Positions 10,448 to 64,000 of a stretch of 64,000 bases of DNA are shown here, piece by piece. Source of the DNA: Escherichia coli O157:H7 str. 2011EL-2287 (GTDB lineage: Bacteria > Pseudomonadota > Gammaproteobacteria > Enterobacterales > Enterobacteriaceae); assembly GCA_000614405.2 (NCBI GenBank), contig GCA_000614405.2_3612.1; one strand, 5' to 3'. How positions within the stretch are numbered: position 1 is the first letter of the stretch; every line of letters begins with the position of its first letter. The notes under the pieces were generated by a model. It saw only the letters and a program-made list of their open reading frames with translations. It was not told the DNA's origin and searched no databases. The position numbers and the translations under genes are program-made.

Positions 10448-10873
10448 ATGATCTATGAAATGCCAAAACTGATTCGTGACGATGCCCAAAACGCTCACAC
10501 CATTATTATGGGCAAACGCATGGATATTATTTGTCATAAAGATTTCTGGGAAGGAAGTTACTTCACAGAGTATTTTGGTAAACTGGACAATGGTCTGCTG
10601 ATCCAGTTCTACACCGATGCGGAAAACAATATCTGCTGGGAGTTCGAAACTGAAGATATCCATAAACTTTTCACCTTCCTCGGTATTAAGGTTGAGGCCA
10701 AGTTTGAAGAAGGTGAGTGCGACGATTGTGGATTCTACGAGGTAACAGATTTCTACCTCCCGAGCGGTGAGAACCTTTACTATGAAAGCCACTTCGGTAA
10801 CTCCAATATGCCACAGTGCTGGACTGAGTTTTTTGAAATTGCGGAAGAGGAGCTGGCATACCGTGATTATTGA
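10448..10873 (+). CDS. hypothetical protein
   Basis: ORF with SD GGAGA upstream. Confidence 0.5.
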   Translation: MIYEMPKLIRDDAQNAHTIIMGKRMDIICHKDFWEGSYFTEYFGKLDNGLLIQFYTDAENNICWEFETEDIHKLFTFLGIKVEAKFEEGECDDCGFYEVTDFYLPSGENLYYESHFGNSNMPQCWTEFFEIAEEELAYRDY

Positions 10874-11321
10874 TACTGTAGGGGGAGATCTAATCTCTCT
10901 TTTCAAGAAAGGGTCGGGCCACATGATCCACGGTTGTAACTGCTTTCACACAATGGGTGCAGGCATAGCGAAAGACATTGCCCGTGAGTTCCCTCAAGCA
11001 CTGGCAGCCGACAAAGAGACTGCTTATGGTAATCTAGACAAGCTGGGTATGTTTTCTTGTTGGGAGCATTTTGCCAAGAACAGGGCCGTATATGGAATCA
11101 ACCTGTATACCCAGTTCTACCCAGGGCCCAATGCTGAATACTTCTCAATCATGAAAGGTTTTGAGCGAGTCAACGAGGTATTCAAAGGTGTGTCATTGCC
11201 GTTCTACATTCCTAAAATCGGATGCGGTATTGGCGGTCTAAAGTGGGAACATGTAGAAGATGTAATTAATCTTGCAACCACAGATATTGATGTGGTTGTA
11301 GTAGAGTACAAAAAGTGTTGA
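10863..11321 (+). CDS. macro domain protein (ADP-ribose binding/processing), probable GTG start
   Basis: IDTVGGDLISLF...HMIHGCNCFHTMGAGIAKDIAREFP matches macro-domain core; GAGGAG SD 9 nt before GTG 10863. Confidence 0.6.
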   Translation: MIIDTVGGDLISLFKKGSGHMIHGCNCFHTMGAGIAKDIAREFPQALAADKETAYGNLDKLGMFSCWEHFAKNRAVYGINLYTQFYPGPNAEYFSIMKGFERVNEVFKGVSLPFYIPKIGCGIGGLKWEHVEDVINLATTDIDVVVVEYKKC

Positions 11322-11572
11322 CGACCATCTTCTGAGGTGATATAGTCTCCACAACAACTAAGAGAGGAGAGCACTGTGGAGACTAAAATCTTAATTCTTG
11401 CTGTGGTAGATACAACCGAAGGAGCTATATTCGAATCTGCAGGAGGGTATTTCTACCTACCATACGGAAAAAGAACTTCCGAGCCAAGTAAAGATTCAAT
11501 CCGCAAAGTGTTCCCGTGTGCTTTCTGGCTGGAGATTTTGGTATAAGATTGCAGAGGATTTGGGAGAGAATT

Positions 11573-11767
11573 ATGAGAAACAAGAAAGAGCTTTACTCTG
11601 GTGAGTGGATCAACGATCAACAGGTGGGAGAGGTAACCTGCTTCCGATGTTTTACCAGGTACAATCTTAAAACTGCACCAAAAAGTGTTCCAAAGACTGA
11701 TGGTTATTACATAAAAGAACCTTATTGCCCAAAATGTAAATGCCGATTATACTGGAGTAACCTGTAA
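11573..11767 (+). CDS. small zinc-ribbon protein
   Basis: ORF with SD GGGAGAG; two CxxC pairs (CFRC, CPKCKC). Confidence 0.5.
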   Translation: MRNKKELYSGEWINDQQVGEVTCFRCFTRYNLKTAPKSVPKTDGYYIKEPYCPKCKCRLYWSNL

Positions 11768-58544: not shown

Positions 58545-58592
58545 AACATTTTATGAGGTAACAATACCACGTCCGTGTGGTTATGTCAATGA

Positions 58593-59187: not shown

Positions 59188-60471
59188 TCATTCCAGAACC
59201 TCCCAAGTGTCTGGGTTAACATTTCGGACGCAGATACCGACAGGGAATTGGTAGTTGTTGTCTTCTGTCCTTGCTTGATATTTGAAGGTGACAAACTTGC
59301 CGATCATTTCCTGCATCCTGTCATAGCTACGCTCCTCGTGCGTGCCTTTCATCTTCATTTTAACAACAACACCTTCCTTGTCAACACAGATAAGAACACC
59401 TTCATCATTCTTATCTTTCTCAACGTCAATAACTTTCACCTCTGCGTCGTTGAACTTTTTCCATTTCAATGCTTCAGATGTTCGCTGACCATACTCATAT
59501 TTACCACAGAAGTTACGCATAATGGTACCTTCATATCCCTCAGACATAAATATACCAACAGACTCTTCGCACCGATCAACTGTGTATGCAATCTCTGCAT
59601 CAACAACCTTAATATGATCAAGCATCAAAGAAGCAATAGCACCATTTGCCTCCATAAGATCCTTACAGCGTCCAGACTCTGTTTCAGGATCCCACCACAC
59701 CTTATCGCTAGGAATATCGAAAATATGATACTCTAAGTCGTAGCTGCAGTACCCTCCGTAACGCAAATCATCACGAACAGGCTCAACATCAACAGGAATG
59801 TCCATCTTGTTGAAGTTTTTGTATGTTGCTAAACCTGCTTTAATCGCAGCCTGACGGCGTTTTTTATCTGCCTTGTAGTCTTTATCGATCTCGGCCTGAA
59901 TTTCTTCCTGTGTGCGCCACCGTTTAGCAAGAGACACTATTTTCTGCAGAGGCAGACCATGAATATAGAGCTCTCCGTCGAGCTGTTTAATCCCGGTGGT
60001 TAGGTGGAAAGAGCGAAGTTGCTCCAGAAGCTTCCCTTGAATAGGGTAGGACTTATTACCACGGGAAATAAATTTAGGCTCACCATTCTGGAAAACAACA
60101 AGTAGACGAAGGCCATCTAACTTACGCAAGATCCAGCAAGGTAATTTAAGTGCCTTGCCACGCTTCAGGTAGTCATGCACCAACATGGGTAAAAGATCAA
60201 CACCTTGCTCACAATCTTCCATACTCTCCACGTACCCGAGTCGGACCTGTTTTTCCCACTTACTGATCGCTTCCAGCTCGGCCTGTTGCTCAGCTGTAGT
60301 TTCATTAGCGCGACCCACGTTCTTAGGTGTGCAGATCGTCTCTTTGTATTGCAGTTTACCATCAAGCTTGCCAAACTCTACGATAACCTTATCACCATCC
60401 GTGAATACTTTCCACTGTTGGTAGCTGCCATCTTTGTTCAGTGCGTACAGTGTTGTTTTGATCTGATGCAT
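59188..60471 (-). CDS. ATP-dependent DNA ligase
   Basis: Nucleotidyltransferase motif I KLDGLR, motif IV EGTIMR, motif V KWKKF; 427 aa. Confidence 0.7.
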   Translation of the reverse strand: MHQIKTTLYALNKDGSYQQWKVFTDGDKVIVEFGKLDGKLQYKETICTPKNVGRANETTAEQQAELEAISKWEKQVRLGYVESMEDCEQGVDLLPMLVHDYLKRGKALKLPCWILRKLDGLRLLVVFQNGEPKFISRGNKSYPIQGKLLEQLRSFHLTTGIKQLDGELYIHGLPLQKIVSLAKRWRTQEEIQAEIDKDYKADKKRRQAAIKAGLATYKNFNKMDIPVDVEPVRDDLRYGGYCSYDLEYHIFDIPSDKVWWDPETESGRCKDLMEANGAIASLMLDHIKVVDAEIAYTVDRCEESVGIFMSEGYEGTIMRNFCGKYEYGQRTSEALKWKKFNDAEVKVIDVEKDKNDEGVLICVDKEGVVVKMKMKGTHEERSYDRMQEMIGKFVTFKYQARTEDNNYQFPVGICVRNVNPDTWEVLE

Positions 60472-60740
60472 TACTCGGCCTCTTCCTTAAAAATGTTAAA
60501 CATCTCTTCTTTACTCATTACCAGCCAGTCCCCCATAAAATCAACAAGCCAATCACCCTGGTACAAGACTAGGTTACCAAACGGCTCTACAAGCTCACAC
60601 ATGCGACGAAGATCTCTGGTCCGAACAGGTGACGATGTAAACACACCTGTATCAATCCACCGTTGCAGATCAGATACTGATGAAGAGCTTCCGTCAAACT
60701 GGTGTGCTTCTACAGGTTTAGCAAGATTAAATAATGGCAT
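60471..60740 (-). CDS. hypothetical protein
   Basis: ORF. Confidence 0.5.
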   Translation of the reverse strand: MPLFNLAKPVEAHQFDGSSSSVSDLQRWIDTGVFTSSPVRTRDLRRMCELVEPFGNLVLYQGDWLVDFMGDWLVMSKEEMFNIFKEEAE

Positions 60741-61035
60741 TGCAGTCCTCCTTATCTAATAGGTCTTTTATCGGGTAAACAAGCAGGTGTGGATCGTAAT
60801 AATTTATAGTTTTATTCTGCCACACTATGAACTTAATTACAACTAAATTTACCACATCTTTATCTCCATGTAGTCCAACACACAGATTTGTCCATATTTT
60901 GTGGTTGAATACTTTGCTGTCGATGTAGATTTTAGTGTCAAACTTATCCTCTATCCTGCCTATGAGTTTAACCAACTCTTTCATCTGATCCCCAAACACA
61001 GCATCGTTTTCAAGATCTCTAGAGTGCTTGTACAT
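60727..61035 (-). CDS. hypothetical protein
   Basis: ORF. Confidence 0.5.
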   Translation of the reverse strand: MYKHSRDLENDAVFGDQMKELVKLIGRIEDKFDTKIYIDSKVFNHKIWTNLCVGLHGDKDVVNLVVIKFIVWQNKTINYYDPHLLVYPIKDLLDKEDCNAII

Positions 61036-61097
61036 AACTAACTACCTCACTGCATACTTTCCATAATAAGTAAAGCCGGGTAATCCCGGCTATGTTG

Positions 61098-61811
61098 TTA
61101 AATATACTCTGTTACATCCTTGAAGCTCGAAGGCTTCATGATCTTACCTTTACTGTCAAGGAATATGATAACTTTATTACCGTTGTAGAATTCTTCCTTG
61201 GCAACAAAACCTTCATATCGACCATCAAAGCGTCGTTCAAGATCTTTAATCTCCAACTCGATTAGTTGTTCAGCAGGCATATCTGCACTGGCACCGTGTG
61301 AATACCGTAGATGGTTGACCCGTGCAAACTTGCTGTCATTCGATTTGAGAACCTTACGCATCATCCCGCACACATCGCCGCGAAGCTGGAACAGTAAAGC
61401 TGTTGACAACTCCGCTAAGCGGTAAGCTGACGCTCTTTGCTTAGATGTGTTTTTAGCAGCGATCAGTGTATCATAGAACTCACCGATCTTGAACTTAAGA
61501 CCTCGTGGATTATCAAACAGGTTTGACCACTTTTCGTGATTGTCATTAACAAGATAAGCGGCATAACTTGTGACAACGTGAAGATCGCAGGCCTCTTTTA
61601 GCAGGTGATCTCCACCATCACCTTTCTCCAGCTCTTCCAAAACTTCATTGAACTCTTCCTCAATGAAGCTAAGCTGTAATTCGAACGGTGTGTATGATTT
61701 TTTCACTTTAGCTGCCACACGGTTCCAGTTTTCCACCCAGTTGGCAGACCAAAGGTAGTTTTCAGGTTGGGACAGTTTTTCCAGGTTGTCAATTAATTTG
61801 GTATTCAGCAT
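61098..61811 (-). CDS. hypothetical protein (possible MazG-like NTP pyrophosphohydrolase)
   Basis: Glu-rich SFIEEEFNEVLEELEKGD segment weakly resembling MazG/HisE metal-binding helix. Confidence 0.4.
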   Translation of the reverse strand: MLNTKLIDNLEKLSQPENYLWSANWVENWNRVAAKVKKSYTPFELQLSFIEEEFNEVLEELEKGDGGDHLLKEACDLHVVTSYAAYLVNDNHEKWSNLFDNPRGLKFKIGEFYDTLIAAKNTSKQRASAYRLAELSTALLFQLRGDVCGMMRKVLKSNDSKFARVNHLRYSHGASADMPAEQLIELEIKDLERRFDGRYEGFVAKEEFYNGNKVIIFLDSKGKIMKPSSFKDVTEYI

Positions 61812-61824
61812 TAAAGGTCTCCTT

Positions 61825-62586
61825 TTAAAGTTCCATAAAGTTTTCTACGGTCTCAATGAATGTTTTATCAGAGAAAGCGTCAACCGCCCCGTTAAACCAA
61901 ACTGGGATGCCGCGATCCTCATACTGGTAAATATCACTACGTGAAATGCCATTCTCCTCTAGATGCTGTGAGTCGTATTTGTTAACGATCAGCAGTTTGG
62001 TTCCCTTATTGCAGGCAGGGAATAGTTCCCAGTTAAAATTGATAACTGTGTTGGAACAACCTACAAGGATAACCATATCATTGCTAGTGAGAGAAGTCAA
62101 CAGGTCATACATGTCTGTATACTTCGGAGCTACTTCTCCGAAGAACACCACATTAGGCTTAACCCAGATATACTTTCCTGCATCTACCTCAGAGTATCCA
62201 ATGTCCCTAATGACGTTACTTCCTTCATCGTCCTCATAGACTATTTCTGGCAAATACCCGTGGACATGTAGAATATCTTCATGTTTTACACCAGCACGCT
62301 CCAGCAAATCATCTACATTGGTGGTAAGATTGATCACACGGCCAGGCCAGCGGGAATACCACTCAGCGATCCGGAGATGCGCAAGGTTAGGATCAACACT
62401 GCCCAGAGCTACACGGCGTGCATTGTAAAAGTCATGCACCTTATAGTAGTTCTTGGCAAAGGTGTGGATGTTGCACACCTCATCGATGCTGAAATTCTCC
62501 CACATTGCAGTGCTACCAGATCGGAAAGTGGGAATACCAGATTCAGCGCTCAAACCAGCACCGGAGATAATAATCAGTCGTCGCAT
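61825..62586 (-). CDS. Sir2 (sirtuin) family NAD-dependent protein
   Basis: GAGLSAESGIPTFRS, TTNVDDL and HG motifs of the sirtuin Rossmann fold; no obvious zinc-ribbon Cys pairs. Confidence 0.75.
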   Translation of the reverse strand: MRRLIIISGAGLSAESGIPTFRSGSTAMWENFSIDEVCNIHTFAKNYYKVHDFYNARRVALGSVDPNLAHLRIAEWYSRWPGRVINLTTNVDDLLERAGVKHEDILHVHGYLPEIVYEDDEGSNVIRDIGYSEVDAGKYIWVKPNVVFFGEVAPKYTDMYDLLTSLTSNDMVILVGCSNTVINFNWELFPACNKGTKLLIVNKYDSQHLEENGISRSDIYQYEDRGIPVWFNGAVDAFSDKTFIETVENFMEL

Positions 62587-62594
62587 AAGTGTCC

Positions 62595-62975
62595 TCAGTA
62601 GATGTTTTGTTTAATCTCTATTCCAAACTTTTTAAACGAGTCAGCTGCAAGCATGAATTTACGAGCCGCTGATGGATTAGAAGTATGCACGAAAATCTTC
62701 ACGTTGTCAACTACAGGAGGCTTACCAAATACAAATTTTTCCTCTAACATGCAGAAACAGTCGTACCCTTCGAAGACTTCTCCTAAATCGCTGTCAAAAT
62801 GCCACTCAGAAACGCGCCTGTAGAGCTTTCTATTATCGTTAATAAAATCCATGAACTCAGAAGAGTTCTTCAGCCAAAGAGCATCTTGGATTCCGTAATT
62901 TGACGGATCTCTCAAGTCATCCAGCCACACAATCAACTTCTTCATTGCATATAGTCCTCGTTGTGAAAATAGCAA
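62595..62975 (-). CDS. hypothetical protein
   Basis: ORF. Confidence 0.5.
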   Translation of the reverse strand: MLFSQRGLYAMKKLIVWLDDLRDPSNYGIQDALWLKNSSEFMDFINDNRKLYRRVSEWHFDSDLGEVFEGYDCFCMLEEKFVFGKPPVVDNVKIFVHTSNPSAARKFMLAADSFKKFGIEIKQNIY

Positions 62976-63877
62976 TCAAGTATCTCACGGCGTTCCTGCT
63001 CCAGGAGGCAGTTCCACACATCTTCTGTGTAATTGCTACGAATGAAGTTTACCATTCCGTAAAACTCTTCGTCAATACGTTTAAAGATATCATCATCCCA
63101 AATCTTCCAAGCTTTACCCCTCATTACGGCCTTCCGTGCCAAATAGTATGGAGACTTGATCTTCAGCTGCAGGTCATAAGGGTAGTAAGGCTTACGGATC
63201 ATATACCCTTCGCCCATTGTTTCTGCAGCTAATTCTTTTGCATAGCTGAACGGGATTTCACGCACAGTGTGAGGACGTTTTGCACCAAGGTATTTGGCAA
63301 TCCCATCTAAAGCTGCTTCTGGTAGCATTATTCCAGAATCATTATATCTGCAACCTATCAAATATGCGCCATGGTCTTCTTGAACAATATGCGGATCTGA
63401 AGGGTGACAAATTTCAAACATGAATGTCATGTTTTCATTGCCCATAACCTTCTTGATAAGATCTAAATTACCACATTGCTCTTGGATGGTTTCCTTTGCA
63501 AGGTTACAATATGGAGAATCAAGAGACCCGGTTGTTGAGAACAATAGGTCACCTTTATGAGATGATACCACACCAAGGAATCCGTTCTTTTTCTCTACCG
63601 CCGTCACAAGCTTATTGTCAGGCAGGTTGGTGGAGTTTTCTCCCAAGTTAAACACTTTTGTGAAGGGCCATGCCACAACATTCCCTTCATTACCTACAAC
63701 AATGCCTCGGCACTCCAGCAAACGAGGAGACAAATGCCATAAATTGTTGTAAAATACTTTTCTGGCATATTTATAGATCTTTAATCCAAGATCTGGGTAA
63801 TATCTGCTGGTTACAAGACCTTTGTCAACTAGGTCGTCTGCATTAAAATACTTCATCATGCGTTCCTCATTTGTCAT
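62942..63877 (-). CDS. RNA ligase-like nucleotidyltransferase (Rnl family)
   Basis: Motif I EKKNGF, motif IV EGYMIRK, motif V LKIKSPYY. Confidence 0.55.
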   Translation of the reverse strand: MTNEERMMKYFNADDLVDKGLVTSRYYPDLGLKIYKYARKVFYNNLWHLSPRLLECRGIVVGNEGNVVAWPFTKVFNLGENSTNLPDNKLVTAVEKKNGFLGVVSSHKGDLLFSTTGSLDSPYCNLAKETIQEQCGNLDLIKKVMGNENMTFMFEICHPSDPHIVQEDHGAYLIGCRYNDSGIMLPEAALDGIAKYLGAKRPHTVREIPFSYAKELAAETMGEGYMIRKPYYPYDLQLKIKSPYYLARKAVMRGKAWKIWDDDIFKRIDEEFYGMVNFIRSNYTEDVWNCLLEQERREILDCYFHNEDYMQ

Positions 63878-63920
63878 TTTGTCAGTCTATCCTGCCACAC
63901 AAATAACCTGGTGTCAACAC

Positions 63921-63949
63921 TTGAAATTAACAAAACAGTTGGGTATACT
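63921..63949 (+). promoter_or_regulatory. sigma70-like promoter (divergent from minus-strand operon)
   Basis: TTGAAA-N17-TATACT upstream of ATG 63978. Confidence 0.4.
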
Positions 63950-63977
63950 ATCGTTGAAATTAAAACGGAGGATTACT

Positions 63978-64000
63978 ATGTCTAAAATGCTATATATCGT
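63978..64000 (+). CDS. hypothetical protein, 5' fragment (continues beyond window)
   Basis: ATG preceded by SD ACGGAGGA; truncated by window end. Confidence 0.4.

Follow-up and report, generated by a model that had tools for sequence, protein, structure and literature searches.

Why should a bacteriophage that encodes a DNA ligase also carry an RNA-ligase-like gene 2.5 kb away, and what would the second enzyme seal? The question is raised by a 64,000-nucleotide stretch of DNA (hereafter the window) from the assembly of Escherichia coli O157:H7 str. 2011EL-2287 (contig GCA_000614405.2_3612.1), which represents a Vequintavirus, that is, an rV5-like E. coli myophage. An earlier note, written from the sequence, had pointed to two ligase homologues here, a DNA ligase-like protein of 427 amino acids (aa) and a 311-aa protein with RNA ligase motifs, and had proposed from the precedent of phage T4 that the latter serves RNA repair. 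Both minus-strand genes are present in the open reading frame (ORF) listing (Table 1) and contain all six motif strings that the note had quoted. The reading we favor, with a probability of about 0.78, is that the 311-aa protein does the sealing in a phage heal-and-seal cassette for RNA repair, acting for example on cut tRNA.

By its sequence, the 311-aa protein is a predicted ATP-dependent RNA ligase of the superfamily that includes T4 Rnl1 and fungal Trl1. It matches Pfam RNA_lig_T4_1 (1.6e-14) and phrog_562 (1.8e-65). A single-sequence phmmer search against the PDB gave no match, and a family profile built from 32 members matched T4 Rnl1 alone among solved structures (2.2e-13, T4 residues 51-249). 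Relatives are plentiful, with 1,683 found by a word-indexed search and 8,608 representative clusters at E ≤ 1e-3 (488 at E ≤ 1e-30) by an exhaustive one; the close clusters, roughly 500, span phages, cyanobacteria and Cardiobacteriaceae. Motif I reads K96-K-N98-G99 and is followed by E155 of motif III, H163, E223-G224 of motif IV and K239/K241 of motif V, while K249 and R253 lie on the first C-terminal helix. Residues R57, K74, F76, K96 and G99 align with T4 R54, K75, F77, K99 and G102, and E155, E223, G224, K239 and K241 with T4 E159, E227, G228, K240 and K242. The T4 enzyme is known to require these residues, of which R54, K75 and F77 belong to the Rnl1-type N-terminal subdomain. The catalytic lysine, on which the earlier note had made its proposal depend, is intact as K96. 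Nearly all of the T4-aligned catalytic residues are invariant in 73 viral sequences, F76 being kept in ~70%; in 36 cellular sequences the position of K74 is mostly Arg and that of F76 is Tyr once. The AlphaFold model of the protein is confident, with a predicted local distance difference test (pLDDT) score of 89.7.

The adjacent polynucleotide kinase/phosphatase that the earlier note had recommended looking for was found. A kinase gene starts at position 63979, divergent from the RNA ligase gene, and is cut by the window end. In OR062943, a phage that is 97.8% identical, it encodes 136 aa and is followed, just past the point corresponding to the window end, by a gene for a 184-aa calcineurin-type phosphoesterase. 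The kinase is an AAA_33 P-loop protein that keeps Walker A and D35 and matches phrog_505 'polynucleotide kinase' at 4.7e-10. In the phosphoesterase the motifs of the binuclear metal site are complete, and binuclear phosphoesterases are proven healers of RNA 2',3'-cyclic-phosphate ends (PMC2190708, PMC3675462).

The association of the three genes was followed in a census of 80 viral loci with an RNA ligase homologue (37-89% identity). A kinase is found near the ligase in 64 loci and a phosphoesterase in 62, each within 10 kb in about 80% of the loci and mostly directly adjacent. The kinase figure comes from a single pass, as the iterated kinase hidden Markov model drifted through kinase-ligase (Kin-Rnl) fusions to 80/80, a count that was discarded. 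Of the 62 phosphoesterase genes, 52 are no more than 1 kb from the ligase gene and 61 share its strand; where at least 3 kb of sequence flanks the ligase on each side (56 loci), 48 loci have a phosphoesterase. A cREC (cyclic-phosphate-processing receiver-like) gene is found near the ligase in 10/80 loci, a sirtuin gene in 11/80 and a MazG-like gene in 13-14/80. Because the kinase and phosphoesterase are so much more frequent than the sirtuin and cREC, the conserved core is ligase, kinase and phosphoesterase, and cREC, sirtuin and MazG are lineage-specific additions. The additions belong to Vequintavirinae-like phages of ~145 kb, in which a single cluster holds all of the genes in one orientation; the lineage of the window has the kinase and phosphoesterase genes inverted as a pair. 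In roughly 36 of 60 loci a cluster of tRNA genes is found no more than 10 kb away.

The core genes are also linked by fusion. Kinase and ligase are fused (Kin-Rnl) in 11 viral loci, and metagenomic sequences include Rnl-Kin (P0185, P0195, P0208), metallophosphoesterase-ligase (MPE-Rnl; P0259) and Kin-MPE-Rnl (P0248) arrangements. In about 28 chromosomes of Leptolyngbyaceae (loci L087-L118) all three activities are predicted on a single polypeptide of 703-780 aa. The fusion gene of Leptolyngbya sp. PCC 7375 (L097, 6726-8864) lies 1.6 kb from an RtcB gene (10466-11647), and no Hen1 partner was seen when one was sought near the cyanobacterial fusion.

Taken together, the linkage to kinase, phosphoesterase and cREC genes and the fusions lend support to the RNA-repair role that had been suggested by analogy with T4. 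From what was observed directly (gene identities, invariant catalytic residues, fold, conserved adjacency and fusions) we infer the substrate, end chemistry and biological trigger of the cassette. The P-loop kinase would phosphorylate the 5'-OH, and the binuclear metallophosphoesterase, joined in the rV5-like lineage by cREC, would open or remove the cyclic phosphate. The ligase would then self-adenylylate at K96, transfer AMP to the 5'-phosphate and close the break. The sirtuin, which lacks the zinc ribbon, and the MazG-like protein would be lineage-specific accessories linked to NAD+/ADP-ribose chemistry.

Several points weigh against this proposal. The kinase match is modest and its best family label is only 'ATPase', with no conserved lid arginine evident, and among solved structures the phosphoesterase is closest to an uncharacterized Aquifex protein. 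Where T4 has the motif Ia lysine (K119), the ligase family invariably has Thr. Our literature search found no biochemical or genetic test of rV5-type repair genes, and nothing direct on Rnl6 in phages or on Vequintavirinae confronted with anticodon nucleases. Retron Eco2 nicks tRNA acceptor stems and still restricts Vequintavirinae; since these phages stay sensitive to it, the cassette is not a general shield against tRNA-targeting defenses. Finally, a DNA ligase is co-located in many loci, so a role of the kinase and phosphoesterase at DNA ends keeps some plausibility.

The alternative that survives best refines the proposed repair role rather than replacing it, and concerns the ends that the ligase joins. 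The enzyme is not an Rnl1 sensu stricto of the T4 type: it scores 38.2 bits against NCBIfam TIGR02308, the T4 RnlA equivalog, for which the cutoff is 242, and only ~65 residues follow motif V, compared with 120 in T4. A helical module of that length takes the place of the T4 C-domain (residues 255-374), which gives tRNA specificity, and it is by their C-domains that RNA ligase clades are defined (PMC6379707). Motif I is KxNG instead of the KEDG of T4. In hhalign comparisons N98 falls on Asn150 of Trl1 and H163 on His227, the T4 equivalents being Asp and Ile. In Trl1, Asn150 and His227 together with R334 and R337 hold a sulfate that has been taken as a mimic of a 2'-PO4; the arginines confer 2'-phosphate specificity, and T4 Rnl1 leaves 2'-phosphate ends unjoined. 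K249 and R253 of the phage ligase, at +8 and +12 from motif V and invariant in both the viral and cellular sets, recall R334 and R337 at +9 and +12. Because alignment past motif V to either Trl1 or T4 is unreliable, with two plausible registers that disagree, they are candidate equivalents only. In the AlphaFold model the C-terminal module appears to superpose on Trl1-LIG. Similarity in sequence to the Trl1 ligase domain (Rnl6 clade; 6n0t, 6n67, 8rbj, 9qw7) is weak, the RxxR motif reads K-x3-R in the phage enzyme, Lys169 of motif Ia is missing, and a 2H cyclic phosphodiesterase domain is lacking.

The Trl1-type asparagine of KxNG and the histidine make 2'-phosphate end chemistry possible for the phage ligase. 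In this scheme, cREC or the metallophosphoesterase would open the cyclic phosphate to a 3'-OH,2'-PO4 end, and the ligase would need or accept the 2'-phosphate. The sirtuin, or host KptA/Tpt1, would strip the junction 2'-phosphate with NAD+, and the ADP-ribose by-products would be cleared by cREC, MazG-like or Macro proteins, so that a published proposal for the sirtuin (Iyer et al. 2022) is carried over to the ligase itself. The KxNG/His/basic signature, the Trl1-like C-terminal module, cREC, the sirtuin and the NAD+-linked neighbors favor this chemistry. A cREC and a Zn-less sirtuin share the ligase operon, a gene linked to NAD+ or ADP-ribose lies within 10 kb in at least 45 of the 80 loci (NAMPT in 41, Macro in 18, Sir2 in 11 and cREC in 10), the window has a Macro gene too, and a published metallophosphoesterase mutant is able to give only 2'-NMP from a cyclic phosphate. 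Overall sequence similarity and the phosphoesterase partner favor T4-type (2'-OH) chemistry instead. The family is nearer T4 Rnl1 (E 1e-13) than Trl1 (E 3e-06), and a metallophosphoesterase capable of phosphomonoesterase action would normally remove a 2'-phosphate. Moreover, the four-residue signature is just as invariant in members accompanied by kinase and phosphoesterase only, and the cyanobacterial fusions keep it though no candidate 2'-phosphotransferase is linked to them. K249 and R253 have no residue-level match to R334 and R337, and the NAMPT clusters of large phages may replenish NAD+ apart from RNA repair. On balance, Trl1-type ends are a possibility that deserves attention, with the odds against it.

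A bolder version, that the rV5-type ligase is a prokaryotic counterpart of the fungal and plant Trl1 ligase domain and recognizes a terminal 2'-phosphate, seems to us rather unlikely. If it were true, the junction 2'-phosphate would be removed with NAD+ by a zinc-less phage sirtuin or by host KptA/Tpt1, a source of substrate would be at hand for the bacterial Tpt1 homologues, which have long been puzzling as to their natural substrate, and a phage or bacterial origin of the eukaryotic tRNA ligase would be indicated. We know of no substrate of E. coli KptA.

The accessory genes raise an alternative of their own, namely that cREC, sirtuin and MazG form a counter-defense module against NAD+-depleting or nucleotide-signaling immunity and merely adjoin the ligase. 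Their presence in 10-14 of the 80 ligase loci, compared with 62-64 for kinase and phosphoesterase, would agree with this, as would the NAD+ salvage genes and Macro domains that are common neighbors; a PRPP-synthetase-like gene, for instance, neighbors the ligase in 35/80 loci. Macro and sirtuin genes never occur in one of the 80 loci together. The cREC protein meets the Pfam gathering score of PF20274 and has a receiver fold with a conserved acidic pocket, the invariant residues being D9 D10, D51 D53, H87-T-S-N-P91 and K96. The family was defined in a 2021 jumbo-phage paper by Iyer and colleagues and is predicted to act also on cyclic ADP-ribose derivatives, which would fit counter-defense. 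Operons that pair cREC with RNA ligases of several families have nevertheless been reported. In the window the cREC ATG overlaps the stop codon of the RNA ligase gene (ATGA), and in related Vequintavirinae-like loci cREC lies between ligase and kinase. The sirtuin has no Zn-ribbon cysteines and keeps the catalytic HG and FYxxRR motifs; it matches SIRT5/CobB at 1e-20, with cysteine-free residues 113-139 replacing SIRT5 127-178. In SIRT5/CobB the class III motif FYxxRR is where anionic acyl groups bind, which suggests a substrate other than acetyl-lysine. A separate counter-defense module is conceivable for these genes, and we hold it to be doubtful.

A role in DNA end processing for the kinase, the phosphoesterase and even the 311-aa ligase is improbable. 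Here, nicks with 3'-phosphate and 5'-OH ends would be healed for the adjoining DNA ligase in replication, recombination or the repair of host-inflicted damage. A DNA ligase gene is indeed found near the RNA ligase gene in 26-40/80 loci, depending on search sensitivity; of the 56 full-flank loci 33 have one no farther than 10 kb away, and of the 40 loci with one, 37 have it within 3 kb. The phosphoesterase also matches the ligase-associated DNA-damage endonuclease PdeM, if faintly (20.6 bits compared with a cutoff of 150), and T4 Pnkp is active on DNA as well. However, the fusions join kinase or phosphoesterase to an Rnl-type ligase always and to a DNA ligase never, the neighboring cREC, RtcB, tRNA and tmRNA genes indicate RNA, and in the window a hairpin stands between the ligase-cREC-Sir2-MazG unit and the DNA ligase unit. 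The last alternative, that the 311-aa protein is mainly a tail-fiber attachment catalyst, as suggested by T4 gp63, which has both activities, and by the PHROG and GenBank label 'RNA ligase and tail fiber protein attachment catalyst', can be set aside as very improbable, since the gene is set among nucleic-acid-metabolism genes and not tail genes, the catalytic residues are invariant in phages and bacteria, including the tail-less chromosomal cyanobacterial fusions, and the T4-type C-terminal domain is missing. The inherited label was rejected on gene context.

The proposed RNA-repair genes and their neighbors are laid out in Table 1. On the minus strand the RNA ligase gene is followed by cREC, sirtuin and MazG-like genes, the hairpin, two small conserved genes and the DNA ligase gene. 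The hairpin may mark the end of a ligase-cREC-Sir2-MazG transcription unit. A sigma-70-like site (TTGAAA-17-TATACT, 63921-63949), recognized by consensus match only, points toward the kinase gene. Operon boundaries are tentative because neither the promoter scan (17 sites compared with 11.4 ± 3.2 by chance) nor the terminator scan (7 compared with 4.1 ± 2.4) rises above the shuffled background. The 102-aa protein co-travels with the cluster in Vequintavirinae-like phages. The 89-aa gene is immediately upstream of the DNA ligase gene, whose start overlaps its stop.

Table 1. Genes and sites of the RNA-repair cluster and the adjoining DNA ligase unit, in window coordinates.
Feature	Position	Strand	Remarks
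ATP-dependent DNA ligase (predicted), 427 aa	59188..60471	-	motifs I-V and OB domain
89-aa protein, function unassigned	60471..60740	-	phrog_14585 3.8e-63; 10/80 loci
102-aa protein, function unassigned	60727..61035	-	phrog_7684 8.1e-50; 10/80 loci
G+C-rich hairpin between MazG-like gene and next gene	61074..61091		terminator-like scan; T tract weak
MazG-like nucleotide pyrophosphohydrolase, 237 aa	61098..61811	-	phrog_671 5.4e-22; no Pfam match
Sirtuin (Sir2), class III type, 253 aa	61825..62586	-	Pfam SIR2 1.4e-26; phrog_2162 1.2e-108
cREC (cyclic-phosphate-processing receiver-like), 116 aa	62595..62945	-	
RNA ligase (predicted), Rnl1/Trl1 (PF09511) superfamily, 311 aa	62942..63877	-	
Divergent intergenic region, RNA ligase/kinase	63878..63978		sigma-70-like site by consensus match
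P-loop polynucleotide-kinase-like gene start (22 bases, MSKMLYI...)	63979..64000	+	cut by window end

The best relative of the region is Escherichia phage 241Ecol014PP, with 97.8% identity over the region's full length, and 122 phage records, Vequintavirus in the main, are 90-98% identical to it. The records of these relatives name an ATP-dependent DNA ligase, an RNA ligase, a cyclic-phosphate-processing-domain protein, an NAD-dependent deacetylase and a nucleotide pyrophosphohydrolase. The 64-kb window has no tRNA genes. In the near-identical phage a tRNA gene cluster lies beyond the window end, ~3 kb past the phosphoesterase and 4 kb past the kinase. Within the tRNA cluster of close relatives, just past the window end, ARAGORN reports a tRNA-like gene of 98-99 nt with a four-base anticodon (atcc; L001 18297-18395, L002 270-367), perhaps a pseudo-tRNA, perhaps a decoder of an unusual kind.

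Other observations concern the wider surroundings. An ORF at ~10863-11321 (+) of the window, ~50 kb away from the repair cluster, encodes a Macro domain (Pfam Macro 25.9 bits, cutoff 22) and shares 41% identity with Macro genes that adjoin the ligase module of other phages; its product could process ADP-ribose derivatives. About half of the loci have NAMPT and PRPP-synthetase-like genes at distances of up to 10 kb from the ligase module (e.g. L016 12756-15812, L020 and L029); unlike in many of these related loci, no homologue of either was found in the window. Phage tmRNA genes lie 5-8 kb downstream of Kin-Rnl fusions in L041, L049-L053 and L055 (e.g. L051 16168-16570), placing another translation-rescue element close to the repair module. 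In L097 the Kin-MPE-Rnl gene also adjoins a nucleotidyltransferase/DUF29 pair. The closest GenBank relative has a 762-bp HNH endonuclease gene between a 73-aa ORF and the endolysin gene (L001 7563-8324); the matching spot in the window (58545-58592) has only 49 bp and no HNH gene, which looks like a mobile homing-endonuclease polymorphism. In phage WalterGehring (BASEL, same genus), a run of small early genes corresponding to the middle of the window includes one annotated as 'ribosome hibernation factor' (L082 30366-30683).

The other ligase fits the description that the earlier note had given of it. The 427-aa protein matches phrog_114 (1.5e-83) and, both over the cutoff, Pfam DNA_ligase_A_M (36.3 bits) and DNA_ligase_OB_2 (31.9 bits). 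Motif I is K117 (KLDGLR), which stands opposite the motif I lysine (RKRNGVR) of African swine fever virus (ASFV) ligase, followed by motifs III (LDGELY, 164), IIIa (YHIFDI, 248), IV (EGTIMR, 314) and V (KWKKF, 336) and then an OB domain, the layout of ligases from large DNA viruses such as ASFV and Chlorella virus. The N-terminal region resembles the ASFV N-terminal domain, and the alignment with the ASFV ligase (6imj) starts at the end of that domain and extends across the adenylation domain. Unlike those viral ligases, the phage protein has a Lys/Arg-rich insert of ~78 residues (residues ~170-247; window 59713-59961) between motifs III and IIIa, outside the Pfam ligase model; it is otherwise unremarkable. 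We consider it an ordinary ATP-dependent DNA ligase, which the phage would use in replication and repair and whose predicted function is independent of RNA repair.

That an rV5-like phage has a DNA ligase and, functioning apart from it, a predicted RNA-repair cassette is as such an ordinary finding. Nevertheless, tRNA-cutting defenses are a growing antiphage class, and the cassette is a candidate countermeasure in those Vequintavirus phages that are used therapeutically. The census separates a widely conserved kinase-phosphoesterase-ligase core, a single protein in cyanobacteria, from lineage-specific NAD+-linked additions, and the Trl1-like residues make the use of 2'-phosphate ends by a prokaryotic ligase directly testable with one purified protein.

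The cassette is already known, both from GenBank annotation and from a published computational prediction for phage V5. Iyer et al. (2022; Viruses 14:1977, PMC9503650, section 3.7.3) described a sirtuin-centered, NAD+-utilizing RNA-repair neighborhood, type 2, with Escherichia phage V5 and Proteus phage Mydo as prototypes, and proposed a KptA-like action for the sirtuin. The locus belongs to the V5 lineage, and all six type 2 genes (T4-like tRNA ligase, cREC, sirtuin, nucleotide kinase, MazG and calcineurin-like phosphoesterase) are present within 5 kb; the locus itself is no different from that description. What differs is the emphasis: the phosphoesterase was termed 'occasional' and the ligase 'T4-like' (PMC9503650), whereas in our census kinase and phosphoesterase are the constant partners. 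The present analysis adds the split between core and accessory genes, the fusions of all three functions and the resemblances of the ligase to Trl1. T4 Pnkp and Rnl1, which counter the anticodon nuclease PrrC, likewise combine a 5'-kinase, a 3'-end phosphoesterase and a ligase of the Rnl1 superfamily. In contrast to T4, the phage cassette has kinase and phosphatase as separate genes, uses a binuclear metallophosphoesterase in place of a DxDxT/HAD phosphatase, adds cREC and sirtuin, and carries another ligase C-domain. The same three chemistries are found in bacterial Pnkp, the kinase-metallophosphatase-ligase of the Pnkp/Hen1 system of Clostridium thermocellum, and the cyanobacterial relatives of the phage enzymes share its domain order, with AAA_33 kinase, calcineurin-type phosphoesterase and ligase following each other on one polypeptide.

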